Shown: positions 4,997 through 22,296, numbered from the stretch's first letter. The stretch is 64,000 nt of DNA from a virus (IMGVR_UViG_3300046318_000439:32001-96000); one strand, 5' to 3'. Notes: generated by a model from the letters alone, not told the origin. Numbers and translations: made by a program.

Positions 4997-4997
4997 A

Positions 4998-5753: not shown

Positions 5754-6678
5754 CTCGCACCTTTAGTTGTTTAAGTAACCCATCGCAATTACAGGCTCGA
5801 TGAGGACACGTCATAGGAATGGTTTTAGTTATTCTTTTGAAATAGTCTGGATCATCTAATAAATTAGTACGAGCATGCTCCATACAGAATTTAATTACTC
5901 CCCCATCCACATCTATCTCATAGTTGTTATTGTAACAACTCCATCCCTTAAAGTTAGTAAGCTTCTGATTATATACTTGATAGTCATTAAACACATCATC
6001 ATCATAACATAGATCTTTTTCAAAATCTTCTAAAAACTTAAAGTACTCCCAAAAATCTTGTCTGTAGTTAAATAGCGTGTGTACGTTCTTTCCGTAAATA
6101 AAATGAGGATGAACTTTGAGACCATCAATCTTGGCACATATTTCAAACATCTCTTTTATTAAAGGCCATAATTTTTTATCATGATGAAGCATGATGTTGA
6201 CCTTACATTGATACCCACGACTTATCATCAACTTGATATTAGATATAAATCTATCTCGATCTGTACAATCAGCTGGATGATAAGAAAACAAAAAAGCTAC
6301 TCTATCACTATACTGGGGATGATCGGTGAAATCTTTCTCTGCATTAGTAACAACATATACGCGGTTAAATTTATCAATCGTGGCAAGTTGGTTTAGGATG
6401 TAATAATAATGAGGGTTGAGGGTAGGTTCTCCACCAAGCAATCCTAGATTGAATGGTAAACTACTTCGTCTTAGGGATTCAATCACCCCATCAATAACTT
6501 CTTTCTTTCCCAGCTTACCCCACTTCTCACCATACTCATTTCTAGCATAGCAGTATGAGCACTTTAACTGACAAATAGTCAAAGTATCCCAATGCACATT
6601 GATGTGATCAGGATTCTGCTGATTGTGATATTGTTTAGAGTATTTCATTTTTAGGAAAGGAGATGTTATCTCCTCCAT
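5743..6678 (-). CDS. Radical SAM protein
   Basis: CQLKCSYC, GGEPTLNP, GWSC...KFC...CPHRAC. The start may instead be at 6648. Confidence 0.9.
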   Translation of the reverse strand: MEEITSPFLKMKYSKQYHNQQNPDHINVHWDTLTICQLKCSYCYARNEYGEKWGKLGKKEVIDGVIESLRRSSLPFNLGLLGGEPTLNPHYYYILNQLATIDKFNRVYVVTNAEKDFTDHPQYSDRVAFLFSYHPADCTDRDRFISNIKLMISRGYQCKVNIMLHHDKKLWPLIKEMFEICAKIDGLKVHPHFIYGKNVHTLFNYRQDFWEYFKFLEDFEKDLCYDDDVFNDYQVYNQKLTNFKGWSCYNNNYEIDVDGGVIKFCMEHARTNLLDDPDYFKRITKTIPMTCPHRACNCDGLLKQLKVRDAS

Positions 6679-7249
6679 CTATTGTTTGGTAATATAAAAC
6701 TTTACTTAATGTTTTGATGCTGGAAGCTTTAGATGCTGCATGCATAGTTAGTTTTATGTCGTTGTGAATGTCGCCATCATTAGGAAAGTTAAAATCACAA
6801 ATCACAGACCGTTTGTATATGTGCTGAGATAGTTGTAGATGTTCTATATTAACACTATCCATAAATTCTTTAGGAGTTAACCATGCATCTTTATATAGAG
6901 TCATAAATGTTAGCATGTTTGGGGTTTCATAACGCGGACAATAATTTCCAGCGATCAAATCAGCATCTAATACTTGATCAAAGAACCCTTCTACTAAGTA
7001 ATCATCATCTTCTAAGAAATATACATACTCCCCTTGAGCTGCTGATAGTAGCAGCTGATAAACTCCACAAAGAGTATCTGTCTTATTGTAGTAATAAGTT
7101 ACTTGAGGATGGTTTATTTCCAATATATCCATACTATCATTATTAACTATAACCTCCACATCAGACGTAATTTGAGCAAGCACACTCTCTAGGCAACGAG
7201 TGAACAGCTTAGGTCTATTGTGAGTAGGTATTAGTATGGATAGCTTCAT
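6635..7249 (-). CDS. Glycosyltransferase family 2
   Basis: LSILIPTHNR..LFTRCLESVLAQ, VIVNND, YVYFLEDDD (DxD). Confidence 0.85.
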   Translation of the reverse strand: MKLSILIPTHNRPKLFTRCLESVLAQITSDVEVIVNNDSMDILEINHPQVTYYYNKTDTLCGVYQLLLSAAQGEYVYFLEDDDYLVEGFFDQVLDADLIAGNYCPRYETPNMLTFMTLYKDAWLTPKEFMDSVNIEHLQLSQHIYKRSVICDFNFPNDGDIHNDIKLTMHAASKASSIKTLSKVLYYQTIDGGDNISFPKNEIL

Positions 7250-8400
7250 CGCACATCAGTGTTTTTTCTATAGAACGTCACATACTTAATTTTATCTCCA
7301 GGTTCTGGAAATACTTCTGTATCCTTGGCTACTTCTTTCTCAATACCATCGCAAATATAAAAGTGCTTACACTTAAGACAGCTAATATCTTTTTGATAAA
7401 AACGCGCTCTATGAGTGGCACAAGCATCATACGCCAATCCAAGCTTTTCTTCTGGAGTATAAGGTTTACTAACATCGATGGTGTATGTGTACATTTCTCG
7501 ATTCCAATCCCGCACATCATAAATGTGTTGATAGGTTCCAGTGACGTACTTCTCATACCCCTTCATGTAACAGAATGGTACATATCGAACATTTACTGTG
7601 ATTCCATTTTGAAGCTTGTCAATGCATTTTTTAATACCATCTGTCATATCTTTATAAGTGGCATTTTTAAAATCGATTACATTGAAATCCCCCCAATAAT
7701 TTAACGTTAGAAAGTTAGCTTCTAATGGGTTGATAGAATTGATTAGATCTGCATATTCGTTTTCAAGTTGATGGTAATTCCTGTAATATACAGTGGCATT
7801 GGTACGAACAATCATACCAAGTTCTTTTGCGTTCTCTATTCCTTGCAATATTCTTTTGAATGAACCTTTACGTCCAGTTATTTCATCGTGAATCTCTTCG
7901 GTCGCTCCATGCAGACTAAACAATATTTCCTTTAGTCCTCTATCTTTTGACTCCTTCAAAAACTCCATATTAGCAAATTTACCACCATGCGATAAACAGC
8001 TAACACTACTAAATCTTTCATTACAATAGTCTAGTATTTGAAACCAATCTGGGCTGACGGAGCTTTCACCTCCACTAAGATCTACCTCTGTAATACCATA
8101 TGCTAGTAAATGATCTGCACGTTTCTTGACAATTTCAAAAGGAGTCTTAATATCCAACATGTCTTTATAATAGCAGAACTCACAATCATAATTGCAGAAT
8201 GTTCCAGTATCCAATCTAGCACGGTTACATGATGGAGTACTATAATCAATGTCAATACCAGCTACCCCTAACTCAGATAGAGCGTTGGGAGTGGCAGATC
8301 CAAGAGTCGCAACACGGTTTTCCGACATTCTATGCACGGCTTTATTTTCCAGCATGTTGTGGAGCTCGATAGGAATTATTTTACGAGGTTTATTACTCAT
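7246..8400 (-). CDS. Radical SAM protein
   Basis: CNYDCEFC, LSGGES, SLHG..EEIHDEITGRKGSF, C-terminal CLKCKHFYICDG. Confidence 0.9.
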   Translation of the reverse strand: MSNKPRKIIPIELHNMLENKAVHRMSENRVATLGSATPNALSELGVAGIDIDYSTPSCNRARLDTGTFCNYDCEFCYYKDMLDIKTPFEIVKKRADHLLAYGITEVDLSGGESSVSPDWFQILDYCNERFSSVSCLSHGGKFANMEFLKESKDRGLKEILFSLHGATEEIHDEITGRKGSFKRILQGIENAKELGMIVRTNATVYYRNYHQLENEYADLINSINPLEANFLTLNYWGDFNVIDFKNATYKDMTDGIKKCIDKLQNGITVNVRYVPFCYMKGYEKYVTGTYQHIYDVRDWNREMYTYTIDVSKPYTPEEKLGLAYDACATHRARFYQKDISCLKCKHFYICDGIEKEVAKDTEVFPEPGDKIKYVTFYRKNTDVR

Positions 8401-9334
8401 TGTTTACCGCCATTTGTTCTTTAACGTAACCAACAAAAAAATCATTAGGAAGAAGTTCTAACCCATTTAAATTAGAATCAATATCTTCTCTTCTTCTATC
8501 AATTCCCCTGCATTCGTAATCAATTTCATACACAACATTTTTTCCATACACGGCACACTCAACGATAAACCTTGGACTGCAGTCTATCTGCCATCTTGTA
8601 GGGGTGTATATGTACGTATCAAATTTCTCAAAGATGTTTTTAATTGGAGCTCTAACAACTTCTACATTTGGTTGCTTAATACTTTCATACAAGTCTGGAT
8701 TGTTTGTGACAATAAGATATTTCTCACATATTTTTTTATCTATAATATGTTTGATGTTATCTGCAGCAGTGGCTCTCATGCTGGTGGTTAGATACAGTAA
8801 TGCAGTGTTTGTTAAGGATTGCTTTGGGGGTTGATATCTTCCCCATAGTATCTTTTTAACATAATCTACTACTTTAATGTTTAGCTCCTCAAACCGTTCT
8901 GGATATAGTTTAAAGTCTTGCATTAAATGTGTGCGCTTGATTGTTTTATTATTATGAAAATAACCAAAATTATTTTCTGAACACCTTAACAGAAATACAT
9001 TATCAGCATACATTACACAATCAAGGATGCGCCACGAACCATCTACTATACAAACATTATTGGCTAATATTATCTTGGGACGATAACACTCAAACGTGTT
9101 GTCTAATATATCCCTCAACTCTTTGTCGTTGAAATTATATTTGTCCTTTAAAGCTGTGGTGAATATTTCTTTGGTAATTCCATCTGATAAAAGTACAGCA
9201 CATTTAATATTGTTAATACTACAAATATAATAATAGTCTATCATCTCGTAAAGATGACCAGACACTCCATGAGTATAAAAGAATGATGTTGTGAATACTA
9301 AGTCATAATCCTTTAGATTGAGTATCTTCGACAT
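8393..9334 (-). CDS. Hypothetical protein, possible glycosyltransferase (GT-B)-like
   Basis: C-terminal FDTYIYTP...DCSPRFIVECAVYGK resembles the GT-B donor-binding segment; weak match. Confidence 0.4.
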   Translation of the reverse strand: MSKILNLKDYDLVFTTSFFYTHGVSGHLYEMIDYYYICSINNIKCAVLLSDGITKEIFTTALKDKYNFNDKELRDILDNTFECYRPKIILANNVCIVDGSWRILDCVMYADNVFLLRCSENNFGYFHNNKTIKRTHLMQDFKLYPERFEELNIKVVDYVKKILWGRYQPPKQSLTNTALLYLTTSMRATAADNIKHIIDKKICEKYLIVTNNPDLYESIKQPNVEVVRAPIKNIFEKFDTYIYTPTRWQIDCSPRFIVECAVYGKNVVYEIDYECRGIDRRREDIDSNLNGLELLPNDFFVGYVKEQMAVNNE

Positions 9335-10224
9335 TATTGCTTTTCCTTATAAAAGTTTAGCATAAAGTCAGCATGACAATACTCTCTGGGGCATGTTACG
9401 TTCACGCAGGCATTCTGTTTATTGATTCGAATCGGCATAGGAGCTCTCGTGCACGAGTTAACTATTGTACCATCAGATAAGATTTCATATAACAAAGCCT
9501 TACAACGATATCCCTTGAATTTGACCATGTCATCTTTCAAGGCATTGAATATTGGAACATGCACTTCCCGACCGTCGCTATATTGAAAGCGATATGTTTG
9601 TTTATCAGCTATGTTCTTGAGTCTAGGTTCAAATATCTTATAAAACTCATCATTATACGTTATTGTATTGCCTGGAGTGGATAATAATATATTGAGATCG
9701 TATCTTACGCCATGGCGGTCGAACTGATCGATCATGTCTAATATCTGAGGCCAGTCTTTTGGATTATCTGATAAATTTATATGACAGTAGAAGTTCTTGT
9801 CTTTAAAAGCTATACACTTATCAAGAAATGTCTGATCGTAATATTGTGCATGGTATGAGGCTGCTAGTCGTATCTTATCGCTGACAAATGTCTGCTGCAA
9901 GAAATGCATGGGCTTTGATAGATTTGTTTTAATTTCTATCAGTGTACACTTAGACATATCAGATAGTTGCTGAAGGATGTCTATAAAGTTTGGATGAAGA
10001 GTGGGTTCTCCGCCATACAGATCTACTTCAAAATCTGTATCAATCATAGAAAGTCTTTGAAGTACTAGCTTGTGTTTGGATGGCGATGTATCTTTAGAAT
10101 ATCGCTCTACCATTTTGTCTGCAGCGTTACAATAGGTGCACTTAAAGTTACACCAATCTACAAGGAACCATTCAAAGTGTATTGTGTTATAATTTTCAAT
10201 ACCAACATTATCTATAGCGGTCAT
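9334..10224 (-). CDS. Radical SAM protein
   Basis: CNFKCTYC, GGEPTLHP, GYRC...NSC...CPREYC. Confidence 0.9.
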   Translation of the reverse strand: MTAIDNVGIENYNTIHFEWFLVDWCNFKCTYCNAADKMVERYSKDTSPSKHKLVLQRLSMIDTDFEVDLYGGEPTLHPNFIDILQQLSDMSKCTLIEIKTNLSKPMHFLQQTFVSDKIRLAASYHAQYYDQTFLDKCIAFKDKNFYCHINLSDNPKDWPQILDMIDQFDRHGVRYDLNILLSTPGNTITYNDEFYKIFEPRLKNIADKQTYRFQYSDGREVHVPIFNALKDDMVKFKGYRCKALLYEILSDGTIVNSCTRAPMPIRINKQNACVNVTCPREYCHADFMLNFYKEKQ

Positions 10225-10230
10225 TTTGCT

Positions 10231-11148
10231 TTATGGGGATAGCACTTGATCTGGCTGAACTTGTTCGTACCCTAAAATTTCAAACACATTGTGTGGTATC
10301 TGTGGCATTTCAGCTTGCTCATCGAGTGCTGTTAAGGCAGTGTTAATCTTAGACAAGCGCTCCAACTTCGAAGCAAACTGAGTAGTAGGAACTATGTTAG
10401 TATACTCATATTCAGTAATGTACTGGTTGTGTTTTACTATTTGAGGTATATTGATAGTTCGTTCGAGTACATTAATATACCCATTCTCAATTATATCTTC
10501 AAACTTAATGTAATGAACATTGGGTCCTCCCAACTGCCTCATCACGCACATATTTAACAATGACTCCACATACGATTGTCCAACCATATCCTCCACCAGG
10601 AACCATTCTGCAGTGGCTTGTGGGGTATTATCAATTAGATATGTTATGGAAGGATTACGTTCTATACACAAAACCACAACATTGGTTTCTCCTATATCAG
10701 CTCTAACCCGCTCAATAAAGTTTTTAGAGAACAGGCCAGAAACCACATGCACATCAAAGGGACTATTTTCATATGCTTGCATGAATTCTTCATACGATCC
10801 CCCTGTGTTTTCTGGAGGTAGTCCTAAATCTGGAGTAAGATTGTTAAACTTGTCTCCATAGTAGGTTAGTTCTGGATTTGTGAAAGATTTGAGAGTGTCA
10901 ATATTTCTAACAAATGTCAACCCTCCATCAGCAGCGTATAGCAACGTTTCCGATCCATTAGGATCTTCAGAGGAAACTGGTTTATATACAAGTTCGGAGT
11001 CGGCATTATATACTTCAATTGGAATAGTATGAATATTTGCTGTGTAGTTTCCAATTGAATAATTGTCGTAGTTATTAAAGGCGCGGGACACTTCATAAGC
11101 AATCCCTGGCTTAAACGCTCCTACCGACCCTGTTACAAATATTAACAC
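10231..11148 (-). CDS. Hypothetical protein, possible P-loop/sulfotransferase-like fold
   Basis: N-terminal IFVTGSVGAFK, VLCIERNP and HYIKFEDII echo sulfotransferase IxRNP and YEDL elements; weak match. Confidence 0.35.
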   Translation of the reverse strand: MLIFVTGSVGAFKPGIAYEVSRAFNNYDNYSIGNYTANIHTIPIEVYNADSELVYKPVSSEDPNGSETLLYAADGGLTFVRNIDTLKSFTNPELTYYGDKFNNLTPDLGLPPENTGGSYEEFMQAYENSPFDVHVVSGLFSKNFIERVRADIGETNVVVLCIERNPSITYLIDNTPQATAEWFLVEDMVGQSYVESLLNMCVMRQLGGPNVHYIKFEDIIENGYINVLERTINIPQIVKHNQYITEYEYTNIVPTTQFASKLERLSKINTALTALDEQAEMPQIPHNVFEILGYEQVQPDQVLSP

Positions 11149-11149
11149 A

Positions 11150-11551
11150 CTATCTCCTTAGATACTCTTCTACTATTGAGTTAACAGCATCCCTATCATT
11201 GTAATTGGTTAGCGATTGTAATTTACTAATAATGCCTGTATACTCTTTTTTTTGTTCTTCTAGACGCTTGATATTATCCTTAAGACTTAGATATATCTCT
11301 AAATCATTAATTAAGTATTCGTCCCCTGTCTCGATAATCTTAATGTAGCATTCTTCTTTGTTTTTATCGGTAATAATTATTCCTCTATCGAGAAACTTAT
11401 TATTAATTAGCATTATGGAAATAAAGTCTAGCAGTTTAAATGTTAATAAATCATCCCCAATTATCCCTCGCACTTTTATTTTACATGCGGCTGCCGCTTT
11501 ACCAGCATAGGTACTACTATCAATACATTCAACTTCTTTATACTTCTCCAT
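11150..11551 (-). CDS. Hypothetical protein (133 aa) coupled to the Cys-repeat gene
   Basis: ORF track; its start overlaps the stop of the upstream gene. Confidence 0.7.
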   Translation of the reverse strand: MEKYKEVECIDSSTYAGKAAAACKIKVRGIIGDDLLTFKLLDFISIMLINNKFLDRGIIITDKNKEECYIKIIETGDEYLINDLEIYLSLKDNIKRLEEQKKEYTGIISKLQSLTNYNDRDAVNSIVEEYLRR

Positions 11552-12309
11552 CAGTCACCTCTTAACATATCCACTGGTAATTTGTCATAATCTACTACGT
11601 AAAATCCATTGTCCGCTTTACTTACAGCATCAGCATATTCTGTGCCTAATAACTCTTGAGCCATAACTCCAACATATGTGGTATCTTTATCCCAAATGTA
11701 GCTAAAGGAATATAATTTTATTCCATGCTCAGAGCCAACATACTTAATATTTTCTTTTAATCGTTTGTCGCTATAGTTGCAATTACATGTGCAAGAGTAA
11801 TTACAATTACATGTACAATAATTACAATTGCATGTGCAATAATTACAGTTGCATGTACATACACCAGCAGCCCCTTGTATATCCGTTATGAGACTATTAA
11901 TGTTGGCAGCTGTGATTGTGCTTCCAATTGATACGCTTGTTGCACCAACATATCCCGCAACGGTTGGCCACAATATTAATTGATTGGCTCCATCGATGTA
12001 TCCATTATTAGGAGGAGATGCTTGAACGTTAAGAGCTGCTCGAAAGTTGTTTATATCGCTAGCAGTAATCGGGGAGCTAGGCGTATATGCCACAGTACCA
12101 ACACGACGTCGTGATCGCTCAGCATTGACAGCAGCAGCAAGTTGCGTATATTGGGATGTTGCAATTAGTTGTCCAGCACTTACATTTGTCAGTGCATGAG
12201 TAGTAGCATCTGATGCGTTTGTGCCATAAACAACAATATATGTTCCACTAAAGCCAGATGCGCTTGTGTTATTGAATGCTGGGACTGGGTACGGGGTGTA
12301 CGTCGCCAT
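11551..12309 (-). CDS. Cys-repeat fibre-like protein with C-terminal peptidase S74 intramolecular chaperone
   Basis: YSDKRLKENIKYVG...KLYSFSY...VGVMAQEL...VVDY is the S74 signature. It is preceded by 4x CTCNCNY, and the N-terminal part has ITASDIN/ITAANIN repeats. Confidence 0.85.
   Translation of the reverse strand: MATYTPYPVPAFNNTSASGFSGTYIVVYGTNASDATTHALTNVSAGQLIATSQYTQLAAAVNAERSRRRVGTVAYTPSSPITASDINNFRAALNVQASPPNNGYIDGANQLILWPTVAGYVGATSVSIGSTITAANINSLITDIQGAAGVCTCNCNYCTCNCNYCTCNCNYSCTCNCNYSDKRLKENIKYVGSEHGIKLYSFSYIWDKDTTYVGVMAQELLGTEYADAVSKADNGFYVVDYDKLPVDMLRGD
11773..11859 (-). repeat. Coding tandem repeat (CTCNCNY)3-S-(CTCNCNY), 12 Cys in 29 codons
   Basis: tgt aca tgc aac tgt aat tat / tgc aca tgc aat tgt aat tat / tgt aca tgt aat tgt aat tac / tct / tgc aca tgt aat tgc aac tat. 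Units differ only at synonymous sites. Confidence 0.95.
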
Positions 12310-12323
12310 TTAATTATTCCTTG

Positions 12324-12701
12324 TTAAATTTTTCCTGCTAAGAAGTTTAAATCTTCTTTTGCTTTTGTTTCCGCAATAAACTTTTCATAATCATCTAATT
12401 CTGATGTGATAAAGTCTAATGTTTGTTGATCAGGTTCTTTCATCATATCTACAGCAGAACCGCTTTCCACAACATAACGTACTAGGTCTGCTAAAGAAAA
12501 CCCTAATGCAGCAGAAACCATTTCTATCTGCTCACTAGCTTCAATGGTTTCCCGGCCACCTTTCAAAGCAACCTGCTCCAACGTACGTAATCCTATACCG
12601 AAGCTTTCCATCAATACTGCTCCGACTCCGGAATCTTCTTCTGCAATGTCTTTAATTGCACCAAAAATAATGTCTAATTTATCTTGTATACTCATTTTCA
12701 T
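12324..12701 (-). CDS. Hypothetical acidic protein (125 aa)
   Basis: ORF track; overlaps the upstream rSAM gene. Confidence 0.7.
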   Translation of the reverse strand: MKMSIQDKLDIIFGAIKDIAEEDSGVGAVLMESFGIGLRTLEQVALKGGRETIEASEQIEMVSAALGFSLADLVRYVVESGSAVDMMKEPDQQTLDFITSELDDYEKFIAETKAKEDLNFLAGKI

Positions 12702-13560
12702 TTTCCTTTTCTTTAAAATCGTGGAATTTTAAAGCACTTTCATCATACTTGTATGTTGTAACGTTACCTTCGTCTGTAAAATACGTTTTGGTAGCATGCA
12801 CAACACCGCACCCACTACACATATCGCAGAAAAACTCACAAACTGGTATACTATTATCCCTATTTATCCAATCAGTTCTGAAGCGATTTTTACCGGCTAA
12901 TAACAGCTGTTGATCTTCATCTGAAAGGGTATCCCACGCTATTGACGTAATTACACGCAACGGCTTGAATGTTTTAATAATTCTGTTTATGTCATCATAA
13001 AAAAACTTAATATTATTGTTATGGATAGTATAACGTACTCTGAAACCCATCCTATTTTTCATTAATTTCTTAAATACTGTAATCATGGCTGATGTTGAAT
13101 CAGACCCATCATGGAATATTCTATTACCGTTTCCTACACCATCAAAACTAACATCAATGGACATGAACCCCCTCTTATAGAAAAAGTTCTCCTTTACTTC
13201 TTGCGTAAACTTATCGCTTAGAAATTTAATGCCATTAGTCTCTAAATTAAAATGCACATTCTTTTTCTTGCTGTATGCATACTCCATTAGATAACATACA
13301 TTTTCCCACTGCAATGTTGGTTCCCCTCCAAACAACACTATTAAAGTTTGTTTGTCTGGATCCTCTCTTTCGATAATACCATCAACATATTGTTCAATAT
13401 CTTGCTTTGTTAGAATTTGGGGAGGACGATTCGCCAAATCTTGATAACAATGCTTACATGCCAAATTGCAAACGTTAGTAAAATAAATGACATTAACAGC
13501 TGTATTTTCTTCTACAGGTTTGTCGTCTTTTCTTATAAAGTTTGCAATGATCTCGTTCAT
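12679..13560 (-). CDS. Radical SAM protein (anSME/peptide-maturase-like, truncated SPASM)
   Basis: CNLACKHC, FGGEPTLQW, SFDG, C-terminal CEFFCDMCSGC. Confidence 0.9.
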   Translation of the reverse strand: MNEIIANFIRKDDKPVEENTAVNVIYFTNVCNLACKHCYQDLANRPPQILTKQDIEQYVDGIIEREDPDKQTLIVLFGGEPTLQWENVCYLMEYAYSKKKNVHFNLETNGIKFLSDKFTQEVKENFFYKRGFMSIDVSFDGVGNGNRIFHDGSDSTSAMITVFKKLMKNRMGFRVRYTIHNNNIKFFYDDINRIIKTFKPLRVITSIAWDTLSDEDQQLLLAGKNRFRTDWINRDNSIPVCEFFCDMCSGCGVVHATKTYFTDEGNVTTYKYDESALKFHDFKEKENENEYTR

Positions 13561-13862
13561 TGTATAATCATTTGATGAGAATTCTTATATCGATCATCTT
13601 TAGGACGCGATTGAGCCTCTTTGATAATGTGAGTCATATTATCTAAAAACTTAGGATAGTCAATTTGATATTCGAATAGATGGCCGCGTTCCTGATAATT
13701 AACATACTTACTATCTACACGGGCTTTACCTTTTTTAGCTTCTTCAATTTGCACTGCTAGCTCATCTACAGTCAAAGCATTTCGTGAATCATGCTCTACT
13801 TGACTCATTTCTACTCTCACTGGTATGTCTAGTATACTTTTAAAACGTCTAGGTTCACTCAT
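13557..13862 (-). CDS. Hypothetical protein (101 aa) between rSAM genes
   Basis: ORF track; overlapping junctions on both sides. Confidence 0.7.
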   Translation of the reverse strand: MSEPRRFKSILDIPVRVEMSQVEHDSRNALTVDELAVQIEEAKKGKARVDSKYVNYQERGHLFEYQIDYPKFLDNMTHIIKEAQSRPKDDRYKNSHQMIIQ

Positions 13863-14986
13863 TAGTTTCTACACTCCACGCCTTCATTTTCGACCCCAAC
13901 GTTCTCAATATAATGCAAGATTAAATCTTGGAATACTGGAACGTCTCTGCATTCATCTACCACTCTCATACCCTGCTCGTATGTAATCATAAACAATTCA
14001 CATATACTATCAAGAGGTTTGTTGTCGTTCATAATCTGGGAGTATGTACAGCCAGCATTACAAACTTGTCTTAGCTTACATTCCACACACTTGTCAAAAC
14101 TGTGAGGGCTGAACTTCTCTTGAAAATATTTAAAGTTGTATTGCTCATCAATCTTCATAATCTTTTTACTTGCAAAGCGAGCACAAGGATAAAATTCTCC
14201 ACTGCTCATAAGCACGCCGCCATTGGTACCAGCAAAACATCCTGTTTTACGTTTACCTTTTACTAGACCATACAACGTATCTAAAATAGCAAGTCTCAGG
14301 AATCCAACTGAACACGGAATGCCTGCTTTTAACTTTTCAATATATCGATCAGTTAATCTAATTAATTCTGTACGATATTCTCTGATATCATCAGCCGTCC
14401 ATACATCGTCTCTCACTAAGCTGAAATCTGGATGTTCAATCCCCCAGTCCAACAAAAACTCAAAGTTTTCTGTCATGTCCCTTACATTACCAGGCCAGAT
14501 CATAACTTTGCAACCGTTAGTCAAGTTGACTATAATATCTTTTTTGTATTTGTACAGTTCAAGAATGCCATCAAACAACTTACCAGTTTCTGGGTTTGTG
14601 TTTTCTAGCAGTGGTAGGAGAGGGCGCGTTTCGTTTGAACTCATTCCATCAAAAGACCAAGATACGCCCACACCATTGTCTGTTAGGTACTTGGCTTTCT
14701 CTGCATCAATCATTGTCAGGTTAGTAATAATGTTGATACCTTTACACTTAGGATCTGACTTGAGGTAAGGAACAGCGTGCTGGATTAACTCCCAGTTCAA
14801 TAAAGGTTCCCCGCCAAAGAAGCTAACGTGATATGTGCTATCTCCAGAATTTTTCATCAACACAGGTAAGTCTTGCATGCCTTTGTCAAATACCTCTTTA
14901 GTCATCCAAGTAGGCTTATTAGCAACATAGCAATACGGACATCCTAGATTGCATTTCTCTGTTACTGAAATTTCTAAAGTGAACAT
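13862..14986 (-). CDS. Radical SAM/SPASM peptide-maturase-like protein
   Basis: CNLGCPYC, FFGGEPLLNW, GCFAG...GEFYPCARF, CVECKLRQVCNAGC (Cx2Cx5Cx3C). Confidence 0.92.
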   Translation of the reverse strand: MFTLEISVTEKCNLGCPYCYVANKPTWMTKEVFDKGMQDLPVLMKNSGDSTYHVSFFGGEPLLNWELIQHAVPYLKSDPKCKGINIITNLTMIDAEKAKYLTDNGVGVSWSFDGMSSNETRPLLPLLENTNPETGKLFDGILELYKYKKDIIVNLTNGCKVMIWPGNVRDMTENFEFLLDWGIEHPDFSLVRDDVWTADDIREYRTELIRLTDRYIEKLKAGIPCSVGFLRLAILDTLYGLVKGKRKTGCFAGTNGGVLMSSGEFYPCARFASKKIMKIDEQYNFKYFQEKFSPHSFDKCVECKLRQVCNAGCTYSQIMNDNKPLDSICELFMITYEQGMRVVDECRDVPVFQDLILHYIENVGVENEGVECRN

Positions 14987-16080
14987 TGTTTAGCCTCAAC
15001 TTTAATAGGGATAATCTTAGAGTTCAGAGCTTTACGTAAAGCATAATGAATAACTTCGTTCATTTTAAACACTTTACATACCTGCCAATTGGATGTATGA
15101 TCACTCCACTTTTCAATATACGTTTCTTTTTCGCTCTTTTCAAACGTAGCAGCATTACACTTCATACAGAATTGAGAATCGCACGATTGACAATCAAGCG
15201 GTTGATTCTTTAAGGCATCCTTAAACATCTCTGTTTTCTCTTTGATCAGAGCATCGATATCTGGTACATTGCGAATGTTGCCTAATACGTGTGCGTGGGA
15301 TTCCTTATACATGCATCCATGACAAGGACTAATGTCACCGTTCAAATCCACGCTGACATAATTGATACCAGCAGAGCACAAGGCTCGCGATTGTTGGAAC
15401 CATCCAAACTTTTCTGGTGGAAGTTTATTTGTGTAGATATACTTTGCTATCTTTGTCAACCCAACTTTAAGTTCTTCCATGTGAACAGCAAATTCTTCCT
15501 GTGACAGAGTAGAATACAAGTCAGGAGTAGGGAAGTAGTTATCCGCCATACTAATGACGTCAAGAAATGCTTCGTAAATTAGATGAAAATGCTTAGCTGT
15601 TAATACTGATTTCATATTAACGTTCAGACCATTTTGTTTAGCAGCAAGATAGTTAGATTTAACTAACGCTGAAGATGGGTTACCTACCTTATCAATTCTC
15701 GTAATGTCGTTTACAGGTTTACCATCATATGATATTTGAAGGCGCAATCTGCCTTGACCTAATTCTTTATGCAACTGAACTAATTCAGCCATGTACTTCT
15801 TTAGATACACTCCATTTGTGTAAAAGAAGAAAGAGAAGTTAGGATCGTGTTTGTACTTATCAATCACCCCTTTGCAAAATTCCCAGTTTACAAATGGTTC
15901 TCCACCCCAAAAATACACGTCCTTTTTAGGATCGGATATTTTGGACATGAATTCGTCAATGTTGTCGAGAGTAACTGATGTGTTTTCTTCAAATTCAGTG
16001 GATAGACCGCACTCATACCCCTCTGAACAGTATGTACATGCTAGATTGCACGTGCTTGTTACGTTAATGTCAATAACCAT
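14974..16080 (-). CDS. Radical SAM/SPASM peptide-maturase-like protein
   Basis: CNLACTYC, FWGGEPF, LCSAG...NGDISPCHGC, CQSCDSQFCMKC. Confidence 0.92.
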   Translation of the reverse strand: MVIDINVTSTCNLACTYCSEGYECGLSTEFEENTSVTLDNIDEFMSKISDPKKDVYFWGGEPFVNWEFCKGVIDKYKHDPNFSFFFYTNGVYLKKYMAELVQLHKELGQGRLRLQISYDGKPVNDITRIDKVGNPSSALVKSNYLAAKQNGLNVNMKSVLTAKHFHLIYEAFLDVISMADNYFPTPDLYSTLSQEEFAVHMEELKVGLTKIAKYIYTNKLPPEKFGWFQQSRALCSAGINYVSVDLNGDISPCHGCMYKESHAHVLGNIRNVPDIDALIKEKTEMFKDALKNQPLDCQSCDSQFCMKCNAATFEKSEKETYIEKWSDHTSNWQVCKVFKMNEVIHYALRKALNSKIIPIKVEAKQCSL

Positions 16081-16111
16081 AGTATAAATCTCTCATTGTG
16101 AGTGTTACAAA

Positions 16112-16855
16112 TTACTGTTGTGATCTGTATTCGTAGTTTAATTCCAGTATGGTATTTAGCAATCTAATATCATACTGTTTTGCTAGGGCTTCAGTATCCT
16201 TTGGCAAACAAGGACCTCCAAACCCACGCTTTCCGTCTGGACCAGGTACGCTAAAGTGGGTCGTGCCCATGTATGGGTGATGGATTAACATAGATGTTAG
16301 TTCAGAAAACTCTACTCCCATTTCCTTAGCTACATCGTGTATGGAATTCATATATGTTACCTTTAGGGCTGCAAATGAATTGAGAGTGTATTTAAATAAT
16401 GCTGCAGTCTTAATATCCACGAGAAACGTTTTACCTGGAACTACCGTAGACTGTTGTTCATATATTTGGAGTAGCCGCTCAGCCTTTTCTCTATCACCAC
16501 CAATCACGAGTACTGGCGGCGCTACAAAATCGCTAAAGGATGTTGTTCGCGATAAAAACTCTGGGTTGTATAATATATCAAACTCCTCCAAATGGTGGGG
16601 GAGGATTGTTGATTTAACTACTGTAAGACCCTTGTAATTACTTTTCCTGATTTCCTGAAGTACTTGCTTTAGAATACTATAATCAGTATCGTCAGTAGGA
16701 GTGGGCACGCACACAAAAATGACGTCTGGATTTTGCATGCAGACGTCATTTATTGTTGTTGTGTTATACTGAGGATCACTTATCACAGAAGTTGTATGTT
16801 TGAAGCCGTACTCTACAGCTTTACCTACCATACCATAACCAATAATACCAATCAT
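16112..16855 (-). CDS. ugd: UDP-glucose/GDP-mannose 6-dehydrogenase family protein
   Basis: GIIGYGMVG, CVPTP, KST, NPEFL, GFGGPCLPKD catalytic motif. Confidence 0.9.
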   Translation of the reverse strand: MIGIIGYGMVGKAVEYGFKHTTSVISDPQYNTTTINDVCMQNPDVIFVCVPTPTDDTDYSILKQVLQEIRKSNYKGLTVVKSTILPHHLEEFDILYNPEFLSRTTSFSDFVAPPVLVIGGDREKAERLLQIYEQQSTVVPGKTFLVDIKTAALFKYTLNSFAALKVTYMNSIHDVAKEMGVEFSELTSMLIHHPYMGTTHFSVPGPDGKRGFGGPCLPKDTEALAKQYDIRLLNTILELNYEYRSQQ

Positions 16856-16867
16856 AAAACTCCTAAA

Positions 16868-18310
16868 TTATAAAATGTAACACTCCACTAATTTTTCTTC
16901 AAGTTGAGAGTTTGTATGTAAGGCAATAGCAATAGGATTCACTATACCCGAAATTGCGCATCCATCAAGACCAGCTACAAGAGTCTGTCCTTTTTTGATA
17001 GCCCCAACTACTCGAACAGGCACTCGCCCTTTTAGCGCAATTGGTTGACCTGCTGCATCTGCATTCATTAGGTAAGCTGGATTTGTGGATACCACGCCAA
17101 TCGCTGGTTGACTAAAATGACTTGATGCAGTGCATTCGGCTTCAGTTGTATCATCTGCTATCACCACAACAGTGCCAGGTATATATTCTTTGTCTGTAGT
17201 GTATTTTTCTGCTATGTCGGCATATCGTGCACTGGTAGCAGTTGCTGTTATAACGCCAGCGCTGAAATTGCCACTTGCATCACGAGCAACAATTGTAGAT
17301 CCCGTCGCTGCGTCTGTCGCACTACGATTGGCACCAGCATACAGTAACGTATTGGCACCCGTTGCCGTACCACTCAATGAGGCCGTTATAACACCAGCAC
17401 TGAAATTGCCACTTGCGTCTCGTGACACTACTTTATTTGCTGTGGCAGCAGACGTTGCATCAACGTTAAGAGTGATATCTGATGTTAGTGTTCCACCACC
17501 AACCATAAAGCTTCCGTTTGACACTGAACGAGCACATTGATTGGCCGTACCGTTTAATGTGCCAGTAACTCCGCCTGTGGCTGTAATTAAGCCAGTAACA
17601 CTGACTGTGTTAGAGAAAGTAGCCGCGCCTACCACCCCTAGTGTAGTAGAAACGTTCGCAGAACCAGTTACGTTTATACCAGCGCCAGGACTAAGAAGTC
17701 CTCCAACAGAAAGTGTGTTAGAGAAAGTGCCAGCGAGAACGCCAGTAAATGTTCCACCTATTCTTAAAGCACTGGCTACGTTTGCAGAACCAGTTACAGT
17801 TAAAGCAGCGTCTGGAGTAGTGTTATTAATACCTACACGGTTATTAACGCCATCAACAAACAAAACTCCACTATCAAAAATTGAGTTACCAGTTGTGACT
17901 GTAAGATTAGTTGTGGTGACGTTGGATGCAGCTGTAATGTTTGTTGCAACAAAATCGCCGATTACGTTAGCAGCACCAGTTACAACAAAAGCTACCGTTT
18001 GACCTAATGCAGTATTAACCCCGACGCGATTGTTAGTAGCATCAATAGAAAGTGTACTTGTATCGAATGTTGCATTTGCAGCACCAAATGTTGAGATGCC
18101 TGCTACTTGAAGGGTTGTCCCAACGTTGGCAAATCCACCAATTGAGGTATTACCGGTTAGTGTGCTAGTGCCAGTAACTGCTAATGTGTTTGAGAAAGCC
18201 GCTGCATTGATGACAGATAGCTGTTGAGTTATTGATACGTTTCCAGTAACCGATGCGTTTTCTGAAACGATGAGTCCTTTACGGACTCGGAAGTCTTGAA
18301 TTGCTGCCAT
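16868..18310 (-). CDS. Tail fibre with C-terminal peptidase G2-type (IMC) chaperone
   Basis: Gly/Asn/Thr beta-repeats, 2x RDASGNFSAGVITA, YADIAEKY (DxAE), GVVSTNPAYLMN, LKGRVPVRVVG. Confidence 0.8.
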   Translation of the reverse strand: MAAIQDFRVRKGLIVSENASVTGNVSITQQLSVINAAAFSNTLAVTGTSTLTGNTSIGGFANVGTTLQVAGISTFGAANATFDTSTLSIDATNNRVGVNTALGQTVAFVVTGAANVIGDFVATNITAASNVTTTNLTVTTGNSIFDSGVLFVDGVNNRVGINNTTPDAALTVTGSANVASALRIGGTFTGVLAGTFSNTLSVGGLLSPGAGINVTGSANVSTTLGVVGAATFSNTVSVTGLITATGGVTGTLNGTANQCARSVSNGSFMVGGGTLTSDITLNVDATSAATANKVVSRDASGNFSAGVITASLSGTATGANTLLYAGANRSATDAATGSTIVARDASGNFSAGVITATATSARYADIAEKYTTDKEYIPGTVVVIADDTTEAECTASSHFSQPAIGVVSTNPAYLMNADAAGQPIALKGRVPVRVVGAIKKGQTLVAGLDGCAISGIVNPIAIALHTNSQLEEKLVECYIL

Positions 18311-18344
18311 TAGTTTCCCTTTCCACTAACGTTAAATTGTATAA

Positions 18345-19079
18345 TTATGATAACATTAATCTAGCTACCTTAAATGTAGCGTTTGTTGTTGGTGTTGCAA
18401 GAAGACGTACATTACCAGCACTGATATCAGCATCGAATGTACAGAATGTTGCTACTGTGTTGACGACTGCATACTCAGTTAAGAATACAGTAGTACCATC
18501 ATGCGTAAGAAGTAATTCTTCGGACATATATCCAGTCGTTGCATTTTTTACTTCGATTAGATATTTTGTTGTTCTGTATGTAGTAGAGAATGTATCTACA
18601 ATAGTTTGACCTGCTACAGCGTTTGCATATACTGTATTGGTAGATTGAACCGATAATGTAGGTCCAACAGCAGCTCTAACACTTACTGTCAATGTGTTAC
18701 TAATAGTTGTGTTGTTAGATATTGTTACTGTATTAGAAACGTTGAGGTTTGTTGCATACACGAACCATCTATTATCTGTGGTACCTAATGATATATTATT
18801 TGTGCTCGGAACTGTTGATCCTCTAAAGGTCACAGTATTTGCAAAATCGGCTGAGTTGGCAAACAATTCCCAACGGTTGTTAGTATTACCAAGAGCGCGT
18901 CCAGACACATCAGGTACGAAGTTGCCGGTAACGTTGGCGGTAAATACAACACTTCCTCCAACCGTCAAATCTCCAACAACGTTGGCAAAGCCTCTAACGA
19001 GGATATTCTGCTCTATCTCTGCGTCACCAACAACCAGTAACCCGTGTTCTGCTTTGAAGTTTGTATTTCCAGTTGCCAT
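18345..19079 (-). CDS. Virion structural/fibre protein
   Basis: Asn/Thr-rich; C-terminal KYLIEVKN..SEELLLTHDGTTVFLTEYA domain typical of T4-like aquatic phage structural proteins. Confidence 0.65.
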   Translation of the reverse strand: MATGNTNFKAEHGLLVVGDAEIEQNILVRGFANVVGDLTVGGSVVFTANVTGNFVPDVSGRALGNTNNRWELFANSADFANTVTFRGSTVPSTNNISLGTTDNRWFVYATNLNVSNTVTISNNTTISNTLTVSVRAAVGPTLSVQSTNTVYANAVAGQTIVDTFSTTYRTTKYLIEVKNATTGYMSEELLLTHDGTTVFLTEYAVVNTVATFCTFDADISAGNVRLLATPTTNATFKVARLMLS

Positions 19080-19082
19080 ATA

Positions 19083-20033
19083 TTATGCTAGTAATGAAAC
19101 ATTTAAGGTAAGTTGAGAGTTCGGTGCAGTTTGATTAAATCTCAACAGCGCATGAGTGGTATTAGCGGATATACTATACACTCCTAAATTGGATGAAGGA
19201 GGAGAGTGGAGTGTTGCATATTCTGTTAAGTATGCATTTGTACCATCAGTAACTATTAAGAATTTAGACACACGAGATGTAGATCCATTTTTAATTACAG
19301 ATGTGAAGTCTCCGCCCTTATACATCATCATTTCCCAACTATAAACATTGAGAGGAGAACCTGTCGACGCCCCTAGATCAGTGTTTGATACGTGGGTTTG
19401 AATGCCATCCATACCGTCCGGACCGTGACGCCATTCTCCCATCATTGTTATGTTGTCTGTTACTTCTACTGATCCTGTAAACAATGTATTGGATGTGATG
19501 TTAACGCCATTGGATGTAATATTGACAGTATTGCTGGAAACTGATAATGTATTCCCAGTAATATTAATAGTATTAGATCCAAGCGTTGTATTTGCCCCTG
19601 TAAAATTAGCGTTGCTACCAACGACGATTCTATTGCCAGTTAAAGTAACGTTAGCATTGAATGTAGAATTTGAGCTAACGTTTAATGTGGGACCAGTCAC
19701 ATTCATAGCAATCGCGTTAATGGAGGTCACTGCATTAGTTATGTTTAGATTGGAACTGAAGGCAGCATTAGCACCAGTAAATATTACATTAGAAGAAACA
19801 GTTAAGTTTGCTGCAGCGTTGACTGTACCGCCTCTTATACTACTACCAACTGCAATTGTATTAGCACCAAAAATACCAATCAAGTTAGTATTGCCGGTTG
19901 TATTAGCTCCATCGTTAGATGAGTTGGCTGTAATTATCTCTGAACCAAGAGTAGAAATTATTTGATTAGTTTTTGTAATAAGTGAGGAAAACGTATCCGT
20001 CGCTATTACAATTGAGGTTATATTCTTTGCCAT
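19083..20033 (-). CDS. Virion structural/fibre protein, paralogous C-terminus to 18345-19079
   Basis: N-terminal TDTFSSLITKTN; C-terminal KFLIVTDGTNAYLTEYA. Confidence 0.65.
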   Translation of the reverse strand: MAKNITSIVIATDTFSSLITKTNQIISTLGSEIITANSSNDGANTTGNTNLIGIFGANTIAVGSSIRGGTVNAAANLTVSSNVIFTGANAAFSSNLNITNAVTSINAIAMNVTGPTLNVSSNSTFNANVTLTGNRIVVGSNANFTGANTTLGSNTINITGNTLSVSSNTVNITSNGVNITSNTLFTGSVEVTDNITMMGEWRHGPDGMDGIQTHVSNTDLGASTGSPLNVYSWEMMMYKGGDFTSVIKNGSTSRVSKFLIVTDGTNAYLTEYATLHSPPSSNLGVYSISANTTHALLRFNQTAPNSQLTLNVSLLA

Positions 20034-20248
20034 TATGCCTTACCGTTCGTTAATATTTCTAGCATACGTTTTATATCAGTCATGTCCTGCTTCAAACCGT
20101 TCACTTCCTCCACTACTTGGGTAAGAGCTAATTCTTTTGCTCTAGCATCCTTGTATGCTTGAAGTCCTGCACTATCAATATTTAGGACAGCTCGAGCACG
20201 GCCAGGAGTATCGTCCTTCATAAACCCAGGAAATTCTGTCTTTATCAT
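20033..20248 (-). CDS. Small conserved T4-like hypothetical protein (coiled-coil end)
   Basis: AVLNID..GLQAYK..R...EVNGLKQDMTDIKRML. Confidence 0.65.
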   Translation of the reverse strand: MIKTEFPGFMKDDTPGRARAVLNIDSAGLQAYKDARAKELALTQVVEEVNGLKQDMTDIKRMLEILTNGKA

Positions 20249-22296
20249 GCTGATACCGCAATCGCTCTAAGATCGTTAATATGAGGAACGCGATAATTAT
20301 TATCCGCTAATAACACAATTTTTATAGCGAAAGTTTTATAACCATCGTAAGCTCCATTTGTAGTGTTGTAATACCGAATGATATTGCCATTCTGTACATT
20401 AACAAATGCAGCATGGGTATCAGTAATTTTTTCAATTTTTAATCCAGCAGAAACCATGCTTGAATTAGAAATGGAATCCGCTACTGTTAATGTTGATGTG
20501 TTTGCAGCAGTCACAACTGATATGATGTGATTATTAGGGAAGTTAGGCTGATACACCTTAACTAAGTCATTTACGGATATAGCAGTGTTTACTACCACAT
20601 CTGTTCCAATGATAACATTGTTGCCTAGCTGAGTTGTATATAATCCATTAGCAGATACCCCAGTATGATATGATGGTACCTTATACTCAAACTCGATAAC
20701 ATCATTACGGTTAGATGGATTACTTAACAACCCCTTGTCTGTTACAAGCTCAAGAATTGTCCAATTTTTATCGTCAAACGGTTCTGGATCCACATTATTA
20801 TGAAACTTTGCATATACTTTAATATCTGTATTAGCAGGCTTGTAGGCACTTATATACACACGAAGATCTTCAGCGTCCTGGCCATCTGCTAACACAACAC
20901 GTTTAGCAACATACTTGGTAGTAGAGTTGCCAGAGTTGGTATATTCATTAGTTGCATCATTATTAATTTCGTAACGATTTACAAATAAGTCTAAGTTTTC
21001 TTCTTTAGCGTATGGAGAAGTATAGATGTTTATTGTATTGAAAGTAATTTCTGATTCTAGAGACTTAGCACCATCAAATAAAGTACCACCATTTAACACC
21101 TCATAAGAGCGAGATGCAATAATGGCTGGGTATGTATCCACAAACTTGATTTGATTGTTTTCTACAGAGGCTTTATTACCAGAAGATTGATAGTACGTAG
21201 AATTGGCTATATTAATTGCCACATTAGAATATGTACTAGCTGGTGTAATTATATTAAATGCTGGTCTAACTTGATTCGCTTCAAAATTTTCAATATACTC
21301 TATCTTACAAGAGGCACTTGAATCCACACCATGGATAACACCATTGTTTGCAAAATAAGAAGTTGAGTTTGCAGTTGAATTTTCTAAAGTCAAACGCTCA
21401 TTCAAAGTATTGAAATCATATACAGTACCGACAGGAGTCTTTAAATAAAATCCTGCAGCATTAGAGAATGAAGGAGCAGTATCAATTGTCATGTATGTGT
21501 TGTTAGCAATTGTTGCGACTGATCGAACATCTGCATTACCGACTGTACCGTCTGTAATTACAAACTTATCTCCAACTTGCAACGTTGAGGCAAACAAGGT
21601 TCCATTACCAACAATAGCTGCACTTGTTGCATTAATAGTTAGTGTGCCTGTGCTGGGAGCTGTGTTCTGATAAACATATTCGCCTCCCTTAAAGTTGCCA
21701 CTAATACTATTAGCAAACATCTTAAAGAATTCGTTATAGCTATTATTGAGTTTGTATGTGGCAGTGTTGCTTGTAAAGCGAGCAATATTCAACGCAAACT
21801 TTAAGTCAGCGTCTTTTAAGGCTGTTAACACTTTACCATTAGTAATGGTGTAAAAGAATCCATCTACCTTACCAGAAGATACTTGAGTGTTGTTTGTAGT
21901 GTTTAAAACCTTTTCGCCAGCTTTATTCCACCACAACTTAAAGTCATCATCACTACCATCGAATTTAACAAGAATAGCATACGACTGAGCTGTTTTAATA
22001 GCAACTGGGAAATTAAAGTTGAATTTTGTTGGAGTTACTGCAGTACTGGTTTCAAATATATCGTTATATTCGACTCGCGCAACTTCCGGATAGGCAGCAC
22101 TTAAATTTGGAACATCATTGTCGATTGGACAAATATAAACTTCAGCGCCTGGCTGAAATATACCAGTTTTGGTTTTACCAGCTACTGGTTTGTTTTTAAA
22201 ATATAGGTCAACGCTAGTAATAAAAATAGTGTCAGCTTGTCTAACTGAATCTTTATCTACGTAGAATGTTTGGGCTAGATCAAATTCTGTTGCCAT
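20245..22296 (-). CDS. Structural protein corresponding to the C-terminal part of DUF4815/VrlC-like proteins
   Basis: LAQTFYV...FITSVDLYFKNKP, DLKFALNIARF, KYVAKRVVL.DGQDAEDLRVY, FAIKIVL...VPHINDLRAIAV. Confidence 0.75.
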   Translation of the reverse strand: MATEFDLAQTFYVDKDSVRQADTIFITSVDLYFKNKPVAGKTKTGIFQPGAEVYICPIDNDVPNLSAAYPEVARVEYNDIFETSTAVTPTKFNFNFPVAIKTAQSYAILVKFDGSDDDFKLWWNKAGEKVLNTTNNTQVSSGKVDGFFYTITNGKVLTALKDADLKFALNIARFTSNTATYKLNNSYNEFFKMFANSISGNFKGGEYVYQNTAPSTGTLTINATSAAIVGNGTLFASTLQVGDKFVITDGTVGNADVRSVATIANNTYMTIDTAPSFSNAAGFYLKTPVGTVYDFNTLNERLTLENSTANSTSYFANNGVIHGVDSSASCKIEYIENFEANQVRPAFNIITPASTYSNVAINIANSTYYQSSGNKASVENNQIKFVDTYPAIIASRSYEVLNGGTLFDGAKSLESEITFNTINIYTSPYAKEENLDLFVNRYEINNDATNEYTNSGNSTTKYVAKRVVLADGQDAEDLRVYISAYKPANTDIKVYAKFHNNVDPEPFDDKNWTILELVTDKGLLSNPSNRNDVIEFEYKVPSYHTGVSANGLYTTQLGNNVIIGTDVVVNTAISVNDLVKVYQPNFPNNHIISVVTAANTSTLTVADSISNSSMVSAGLKIEKITDTHAAFVNVQNGNIIRYYNTTNGAYDGYKTFAIKIVLLADNNYRVPHINDLRAIAVSA

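Follow-up and report, generated by a model that had tools for sequence, protein, structure and literature searches.

Radical S-adenosylmethionine (radical SAM) enzymes with a SPASM domain are known for thioether chemistry on small bacterial peptides and, as of 2026, on one archaeal protein. In the quinohemoprotein amine dehydrogenase system, QhpD is a SPASM radical SAM enzyme that makes several Cys-to-Asp/Glu thioethers in QhpC, a small assembly subunit. PapB links Cys to Asp or Glu residues located C-terminal to the Cys (PMC12373016). In Methanococcus voltae, CrpC forms ranthionine links on a repeat protein that is rich in Cys and has C-X-X-Q/D motifs; the enzyme has a predicted recognition element (RRE) of the kind associated with RiPPs (peptides that are made on ribosomes and modified after translation), while its substrate CrpA is archaeal and cellular and has a 17-residue repeat (Dieter et al. 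2026, PMC13692751). Phages are not mentioned in that paper. Here we consider positions 11150-16080 of a 64,000-nucleotide stretch of viral DNA (IMGVR_UViG_3300046318_000439:32001-96000, called the window below), in which a 252-residue protein with a dense Cys array and an S74 chaperone domain is encoded among three radical SAM genes.

We put a probability of roughly 60% on this being a phage-specific module that matures a small virion appendage or fibre protein by radical SAM thioether formation on the array and self-removal of the S74 domain, yielding a constant staple. Three dedicated enzymes, all without an RRE, would act on the C-x-C-(N/D/Q)-C-N-Y array, the most likely reaction being the joining of Cys thiols to side-chain carbons of neighboring Asn, Asp or Gln residues through thioether links of the ranthionine type. 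The S74 domain would trimerize the protein and cut itself off between Y179 and S180, and the modified array would then form the free C-terminal end of the mature trimer, with 36 Cys, where it would be a constant, reduction-proof covalent staple or core and not a variable receptor contact. The third Cys of each unit, its fixed aromatic residue and the presence of a third enzyme would also allow for other chemistry. The features on which this proposal draws are as follows.

11551-12309, minus strand: array protein of 252 amino acids, an open reading frame (ORF) with Cys array and S74 domain.
11860-12309, minus strand: N-terminal body, residues 1-150, with a conserved helix (134-148) that leads into the array.
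11773-11859, minus strand: Cys array, four C-T-C-N-C-N-Y units, residues 151-179, 12 Cys; the presumed radical SAM target.
11551-11772, minus strand: S74 intramolecular chaperone/autoprotease domain (PF13884), residues 180-252 and the stop codon, with the predicted cut between Y179 and S180.
12679-13560, minus strand: rS293, radical SAM enzyme of 293 amino acids (PF04055) with a short C-terminal CX3CX2CX2C.
13862-14986, minus strand: rS374, radical SAM/SPASM enzyme of 374 amino acids (PF04055) with C12, C16, C19 and seven invariant C-terminal Cys.
14974-16080, minus strand: rS368, radical SAM/SPASM enzyme of 368 amino acids (PF04055 and PF13186 SPASM).

The four heptads of the array protein occupy residues 151-157, 158-164, 165-171 and 173-179, and SDKRLK follows immediately. 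At the DNA level the four 21-nucleotide units have 16-19 of 21 bases in common and every difference is synonymous. Both observations confirm a preliminary description of this locus, which had reported four CTCNCNY units with 12 Cys ending at the Tyr before SDKRLK, ahead of an S74 domain, and a synonymously diverged repeat. A word-indexed search returned 669 relatives, and the best 120 of the 669 all retain (C-x-C-N-C-N-Y)n ending at a Tyr directly before SD.RLK. We then searched a family profile, built from the body and the array without the S74 domain, against 1.84 billion representatives, and found at least 361 clusters at 50% identity with E<=1e-3, or 249 with E<=1e-10. As the same array is present in 361 protein clusters, it lies far beyond chance. 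The family is essentially viral, with just three contigs from metagenome-assembled genomes when one genome per species of bacteria and archaea was searched. A full-text literature search found no paper with the array motif.

The number of units per protein ranges from 3 to 28, with 4 by far the commonest. Heptad statistics were taken over 894 units, in which Cys stands at positions 1, 3 and 5 by definition. Position 2 is Thr in 75% of the units; position 4 is Asn in 75%, Asp in 19% and Gln in 4%, so that one of these three is found in 98%; position 6 is Asn in 93% and Asp in 5%, together 98%; and position 7 is Tyr in 89%, Phe in 6% and His in 4%. Each heptad thus holds two C-x-x-(N/D/Q) motifs, C1-x-x-(N/D/Q)4 and C3-x-x-(N/D)6.

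The constant unit of the family is the helix followed by the array. N-terminal bodies differ between members and are exchangeable, for example for a Gly_rich_2 domain. The body residues E64, R67, R68 and N138 are conserved. Within the window's own clade, variation and insertions fall in the central part of the N-terminal body and the array is invariant. The preliminary description had taken the array for a receptor-binding tip; a variable tip is not what we see, as the array is the most invariant part of the protein and the variation lies in mid-body. Being the least variable part, the array is probably a covalent staple or core that stays constant, and not the contact that determines receptor specificity. 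The AlphaFold2 (AF2) model of the protein has a predicted local distance difference test score (pLDDT) of about 90 for residues 31-150 and below 50 across the array. No fold match for the body was found (the best Z score across VIA, 5.4, is uninformative), and Foldseek against the PDB with the whole array-protein model returned nothing. A BFVD search with the whole model matched only the S74 part, and tblastn of the protein likewise found S74 parts alone.

Assignment of the S74 domain, with a Ser-x4-Lys dyad directly after the array, was borne out. Residues 180-220 match PF13884 (Peptidase_S74) with 24.2 bits against a cut-off of 22, the domain matches phrog_6121 (E 7e-15), and BFVD fold matches are to intramolecular chaperone domains (E 2e-6). 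S180, D181, R183 and K185 are invariant in 72 homologues, and the dyad corresponds to S180 and K185 in SDKRLK.

Not every relative carries this domain in fused form. We counted C-terminal states among 137 representative relatives. In 40 the ORF stops at ...C-N-C-N-Y or one to three residues later, a form that one variant shows on eight IMG/VR contigs (L026-L033, in the L numbering used here for related loci). The commonest state, with 58 members, has after the array only a 12-residue S74 stub with the consensus S-D-x-x-(L/V)-K-x-x-(I/V)-x-Y-(M/I/F/L); fused S74 domains account for 15. Some relatives end exactly at the Ser or at the residue before it. Because natural variants end at the array or carry just the 12-residue stub, we would say that the mature protein ends with the array, and the suggestion of the preliminary description that loss of S74 leaves the Cys repeat as the C-terminus is supported by these counts.

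Where the stub form occurs, a separate downstream gene matches PF13884 from profile position 16-20 onward, with up to 35.6 bits. Such split S74 loci are L011:11894-12789, L008:10826-11733, L010:9947-10848 and L024:9848-10726, and also L012 and L035 after the array gene; in L008 and L011 the ATG of the gene for the S74 rest overlaps the stop codon of the array gene. In L011 there are four tandem array paralogues, each with a stub, alongside one S74-rest gene; L008 combines two stub copies and one fused copy with one S74-rest gene. Since the rest of the domain is a separate gene, and one such gene is shared by several stub paralogues, the arrangement suggests that the S74 chaperone can probably act in trans. 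We know of no split S74 domain described to date.

Several related loci show further variations on the array gene. The three to four tandem paralogues at L011:9962-12526 and L008:9413-11470 have an identical array and conserved ends; they differ by insertions in mid-body and have one S74-rest gene in common. At L050:12638-13097, in a close relative of L002, the array gene is in two pieces, with the middle including the array gone and the neighbors intact, which may reflect a natural deletion or else a repeat that collapsed during assembly. The divergent locus L073 (rS374 identity 32%) encodes at 12430-12915, between the radical SAM genes and a gene like o133 (described below), a small protein with C-T-C-N-V-D units, that is, two Cys per six residues. 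One 520-residue relative, P0187, has after the array no S74 domain but a segment starting C-F-L-A-G-T-P-V; it has no Pfam match at E<=0.01, and a resemblance to the start of a self-cleaving domain of the Hint/intein type is a motif-level impression.

The array protein and the radical SAM genes are linked at the gene level. In all 36 of the IMG/VR loci found with an array protein, genes of the rS368 type, the rS374 type or both adjoin it. The window's clade has the order rS368, rS374, o101, rS293, o125, array protein, o133, o305, o313, rS384, GT2 and onward, and six further metagenome contigs of up to 364 kb have the same gene order. Of 49 distinct layouts, 47 have rS368, 43 have rS374, 41 have rS293 and 31 have o133; each of the other genes is found in about half or fewer. 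One of the two layouts without rS368 ends at a contig edge, and the other is that of an 832-residue relative, L040.

The reverse test gave a corresponding picture. With rS374 as query, every homologue of at least 32% identity whose flanks could be used is accompanied by an array ORF, either less than 10 kb away or elsewhere in its genome, the same-genome cases being CPt10 and the single contig that holds both L074 and L036. About 45 more distant phage radical SAM proteins, with 22-29% identity to rS374, have no array ORF. In L057, L060 and L077 the array gene is found upstream of the enzymes, in the other loci downstream, and the linkage persists despite this inversion and despite loss of the whole sugar/radical SAM accessory block that follows the module in the window. 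Three radical SAM genes flanking the array gene, two of them with the SPASM Cys set, had been reported in the preliminary description and are confirmed; the coupling holds in both directions across deep divergence and changes of gene order. Cys-repeat proteins that commonly lack radical SAM neighbors, the finding that the description had named as counting against it, were looked for, and the layouts do not refute it. A rule relating the number of Cys per repeat to the number of enzymes was also considered and is rejected, because loci with two adjacent radical SAM genes retain three-Cys heptads.

The linkage bears on the foremost of the alternatives, in which the array goes unmodified and forms a metal-thiolate or disulfide core within the trimer, like that of metal-binding fibre tips, and the radical SAM enzymes serve the sugar/glycan block. 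C-x-C repeats are metallothionein-like, AF2 gives no confident structure for the array on its own, and the enzymes could have other work in the window's block, where five more radical SAM genes are found along with a GT2 glycosyltransferase, epimerases and a UDP-glucose dehydrogenase. However, the three enzymes are of the SPASM peptide-maturase type and not of the sugar radical SAM type, and in lineages with no sugar block at all (L010, L018, L035, L057, L060 and L065 among them) they are still found beside the array gene. The confinement of positions 4 and 6 to Asn, Asp and Gln would also be unneeded for a pure metal site. We therefore regard this explanation as unlikely, at perhaps one chance in several.

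Turning to the enzymes, all three match PF04055 above the cut-off and have CX3CX2C. In rS368 (over 42 homologues) and rS374 this motif is joined by seven conserved C-terminal Cys, constituting a full SPASM set, whereas rS293 has CX3CX2C and CX3CX2CX2C (three plus four conserved Cys), which is not a full SPASM. The best NCBIfam model for all three is the PapB ranthipeptide maturase, NF047865, with scores of 138.8 (rS374, full-length), 85.4 and 77.7 bits against a cut-off of 340, and the CteB-type SCIFF model TIGR03974 gives 80, 60 and 56 bits against a cut-off of 425; by these scores they are members of neither family. The best match in the PDB for all three is CteB, 5WGG (E 4.7e-15 for rS374). 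The alignments start at CteB residue 101, the phage enzymes themselves beginning at their CX3CX2C, and no RRE was found in any of the three. In a maximum-likelihood tree the rS368 and rS293 sequences each fall on one side of a branch with approximate likelihood-ratio support (SH-aLRT) of 99, and those of rS374 nearly so. Because the tree separates the enzymes in this way, each locus retains one member of each of three old paralogue groups. Prediction of a complex between rS374 and array segment 120-185, with three 4Fe-4S clusters and SAM included, gave a score of 0.02, which speaks neither for nor against binding.

The enzymes might also modify the array by some other reaction: formation of sactionine (S-C-alpha) links, conversion of Cys to formylglycine as by the anaerobic sulfatase maturase anSME, Tyr cyclophane or other C-C links, epimerization or methylation. 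The models for anSME, the cyclophane enzyme YhhB and the sactipeptide enzymes RumMC and AlbA also match, with weaker E-values, an aromatic residue is fixed at heptad position 7, and three different enzymes could perform three reactions. As PapB is the best full-length match for all three (for rS374, E 2.4e-40 versus 2e-14 for anSME) and CteB is the best solved relative, we consider a different chemistry slightly more doubtful still than the metal or disulfide core.

Evidence that the family is structural comes from outside the window. Campylobacter group II phages (Firehammervirus: CP21, CP220, CPt10, IBB_35 and others) have a 534-residue homologue together with genes of the rS368 and rS374 types. 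CP21_105, CPT_0180 and IBB_35 gene 3-9 belong to the same family, with the helix and a C-x-C-D/N-C-N-Y array (phrog_26958). IBB_35 gene 3-9, of 1605 bp, has coordinates that agree with a tblastn match 93% identical to the array-bearing CP21_105, and its product is among 38 particle proteins detected by mass spectrometry, with 2.6% coverage (Carvalho et al. 2012, PMC3322345 Table S2). The preliminary description had expected a virion protein; presence in virions is indicated for this distant Campylobacter homologue, and the independent support that it lends to a structural role for the family is thin. Timms et al. (2010, PMC2853527) recorded a 21-bp repeat inside CPT_0180 as well as an unusual load of 11-12 radical SAM genes, which they interpreted as host-metabolism genes. 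The Campylobacter homologue differs from the window's protein in that its array is central, with scattered C-x-C-(N/D) motifs after it, and in that it has no S74 domain; the radical SAM genes of these phages are dispersed. CP21_105 itself (L037, positions 74991-76595 of the CP21 record) is annotated as a putative N-acetylneuraminate pyruvate lyase and its counterparts in other records as hypothetical proteins; we saw no support for the lyase name.

Very improbable, finally, is a RiPP-like precursor whose body is a leader and whose array is released as a peptide, metallophore or cofactor, with S74 just trimming the C-terminus: the layout of a conserved leader before a Cys-rich core and the RiPP-type maturases would suit it, but the module has no conserved leader protease or exporter, virions were found to contain a homologue, the gene closes the tail-fibre block, fibre-type domains such as Gly_rich_2 replace N-terminal bodies, and S74 domains otherwise occur on fibres, spikes and appendages. 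With no leader protease and no released product, the module is not RiPP in the strict sense.

Against maturation of a virion protein by these enzymes several points must be set. No RRE or other recognition domain was found in the enzymes or in the small ORFs, and in NCBIfam all three enzymes score below the curated cut-offs of every named maturase family. C-x-C motifs are typical of metal-thiolate proteins too, and radical SAM enzymes are oxygen-sensitive, while the phage comes from freshwater metagenomes. The virion evidence consists of one protein at 2.6% coverage, a distant homologue without S74 and with its array in mid-protein. In the Campylobacter phages just one radical SAM gene is near the array gene, and in L040 no radical SAM gene lies within 14.5 kb of the gene for the 832-residue array relative.

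Three small ORFs accompany the enzymes and the array protein.

11150-11551, minus strand: o133, a helical protein of 133 amino acids (phrog_25260), with homologues in 31 of the 49 layouts including distant ones.
12324-12701, minus strand: o125, an ORF of 125 amino acids, with homologues in 21 of the 49 layouts, in closer relatives alone.
13557-13862, minus strand: o101, an ORF of 101 amino acids, with homologues in 24 of the 49 layouts, in closer relatives alone.

They exist as previously noted, and overlap or abut their neighbors; the equal weight given to the three earlier does not hold, as just o133 is widely conserved and the other two are found in about half of the layouts. o133 is always just 3' of the array gene or of the S74-rest gene, and is the sole small partner kept in distant loci. 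Its AF2 model (pLDDT 89.6) is all-helical, with five helices; fold searches gave generic helical-bundle matches alone (Z up to 7.3), there was no match in the AlphaFold database (AFDB), and Atlas was uninformative. An RRE/PqqD fold in the small ORFs, looked for at the suggestion of the preliminary description, did not appear: with a confident all-helical model and no informative match, o133 is not an RRE, and o101 and o125 have no PqqD match at E<=10. Those two have no Pfam match at all even at E<=10, and no PHROG or NCBIfam match. For o101 there was no usable Atlas match. The language-model features of o125 lie near helix-turn-helix clusters (HTH_26/XRE) in Atlas, with a value of 0.93 over just 147 shared features, which is too weak to use, and we treat this signal as a lead only.

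The setting of the module is richer than the preliminary description, correct as to the locus itself, had indicated. A co-directional block at 3165-16080 contains eight radical SAM genes, and the same neighborhood encodes a GT2 glycosyltransferase and enzymes of sugar-nucleotide type, with a UDP-glucose dehydrogenase and epimerases, as well as transketolase-like proteins from split genes. The block continues from fibre-like genes at 16868-22296 without a break.

16112-16855, minus strand: UDP-glucose dehydrogenase-like gene (phrog_9148, E 1.4e-39), between the tail-fibre and radical SAM genes, a position kept in related loci.
3165-11148, minus strand: accessory block (Pfam), of this clade only, with proteins of 305 and 313 amino acids and five further radical SAM genes.
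9334-10224, 7246-8400, 5743-6678, 4998-5753 and 3165-4193, minus strand: the accessory radical SAM genes (Pfam).
6635-7249, minus strand: GT2 glycosyltransferase (Pfam), in the accessory block.
4190-4996, minus strand: U32-like protein (Pfam), in the accessory block.

On the 3' side of the module, positions 525-10224 of the window also include two transketolase-like half genes and two NAD-dependent epimerase/dehydratase genes. The accessory block occurs in about half of the layouts and is missing from distant loci that retain the array protein and its radical SAM enzymes. Because only about half of the related loci have it, the sugar/radical SAM block is accessory to the array module. The 305-residue protein (window 10231-11148) has one or two paralogues in several related loci (L002:17199-17888, L008:13191-13988 and L011:14253-15065), and its family keeps an N-I-I-R-N-P-S segment and a C-terminal L-G-Y-x-P-L motif. 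Profile searches of the 305- and 313-residue proteins against PDB sequences, and Pfam scans of members of the 305-residue family, returned nothing. We considered a sulfotransferase role for the 305-residue protein from its IRNPS motif and an APS-kinase-like neighbor in L041, found no support, and dropped it.

The window comes from a virus record of 202 kb that has direct terminal repeats. By its baseplate wedge and tube-cap PHROGs at 27-39 kb the phage is a T4-like myovirus, and its nearest cultured relatives are Caulobacter phage Cr30 and the Sinorhizobium phiM12 group, with 37-40% identity in the baseplate wedge. DNA near-identical to window positions 11150-16080 (70-99% of sampled words) is present in freshwater and aquatic metagenome runs from about 9-12 studies, which makes the phage widespread in fresh water. 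This DNA is in no RNA run, and Megablast with window 7000-17000 as query found nothing among phage records. For the T4 late-promoter motif TATAAATA, window 1-64000 has 4 occurrences against 8.7 expected by chance, with none near the fibre/radical SAM block; this phage probably uses another late-promoter consensus.

If our proposal is right, the module would be the first case of enzymatic radical cross-linking of a virion component and of a naturally split intramolecular chaperone. It would extend radical SAM/SPASM thioether chemistry to virus structure and provide a new way of making reduction-proof fibre parts. The full picture, radical SAM chemistry on a structural virion protein whose thioether-stapled core is bared by the departure of S74, with the chaperone split between cis and trans in many lineages, seems to us about evenly balanced between true and false. 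The module would also offer a very dense substrate motif (three Cys per heptad) and three RRE-less enzymes whose division of labor could be dissected, and it would account for the many radical SAM genes, long without an explanation, that Campylobacter group II phages and numerous uncultured T4-like phages carry. For protein engineering, the split S74 variants point to an "intramolecular" chaperone able to act in trans. Culturable carriers of the module exist.

Comparison with the known systems shows both the likeness and the limits of each. The PapB/PapA (freyrasin) and CteB/CteA (SCIFF) systems, like the window, have a seven-Cys SPASM radical SAM enzyme adjoining a Cys-rich repeat substrate, with acceptor-type Asp, Asn or Gln residues at a fixed spacing from Cys. 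The window differs in having three paralogous enzymes per locus, all without an RRE and scoring far under the cut-offs; its family of substrates consists of phage proteins of 150-830 residues with an S74 domain in place of short leader-core peptides, and its array is much denser, with three Cys per seven residues. QhpD also resembles the window's enzymes weakly (TIGR03906 against rS374, E 9.5e-25, 87 bits versus a cut-off of 453), and its system differs in having one enzyme that makes three links in a non-repetitive subunit, in a cellular setting.

Closest in layout is CrpC/CrpA, in which a SPASM radical SAM gene likewise adjoins a gene for a Cys-rich repeat protein with C-X-X-Q/D motifs, and a protein, not a peptide, is modified. 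The same kind of layout, with C-x-x-(N/D/Q) motifs, was found in 47 of the 49 layouts. The CrpC family is a different one (TIGR04463 matches rS293 at E 1.3e-9 and its cut-off of 525 bits is not reached), and CrpA, unlike the window's protein, has no S74 domain and no virion context. A full-text literature search found no paper linking SPASM enzymes or ranthipeptides to phage virion or structural proteins.

The S74 chaperones (endoNF of K1F, T5 pb1, neck appendages and the MyRF ICA), like that of the window, start with SD.RLK, have Ser-x4-Lys and are C-terminal. In the window the domain comes after a Cys array and not after a triple beta-helix stalk, and in many relatives it is split, so that the first strand, 12 residues that include the dyad, remains part of the fibre protein and the gene for the rest is common to up to four tandem paralogues. 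Judged by these comparisons, the system resembles maturation of the ranthipeptide and CrpC/CrpA types while its enzymes fall outside the PapB, CteB and TIGR04463 families, and it is unusual in that its target is a virion-type protein with a predicted self-cleaving chaperone, which in many relatives is naturally split.

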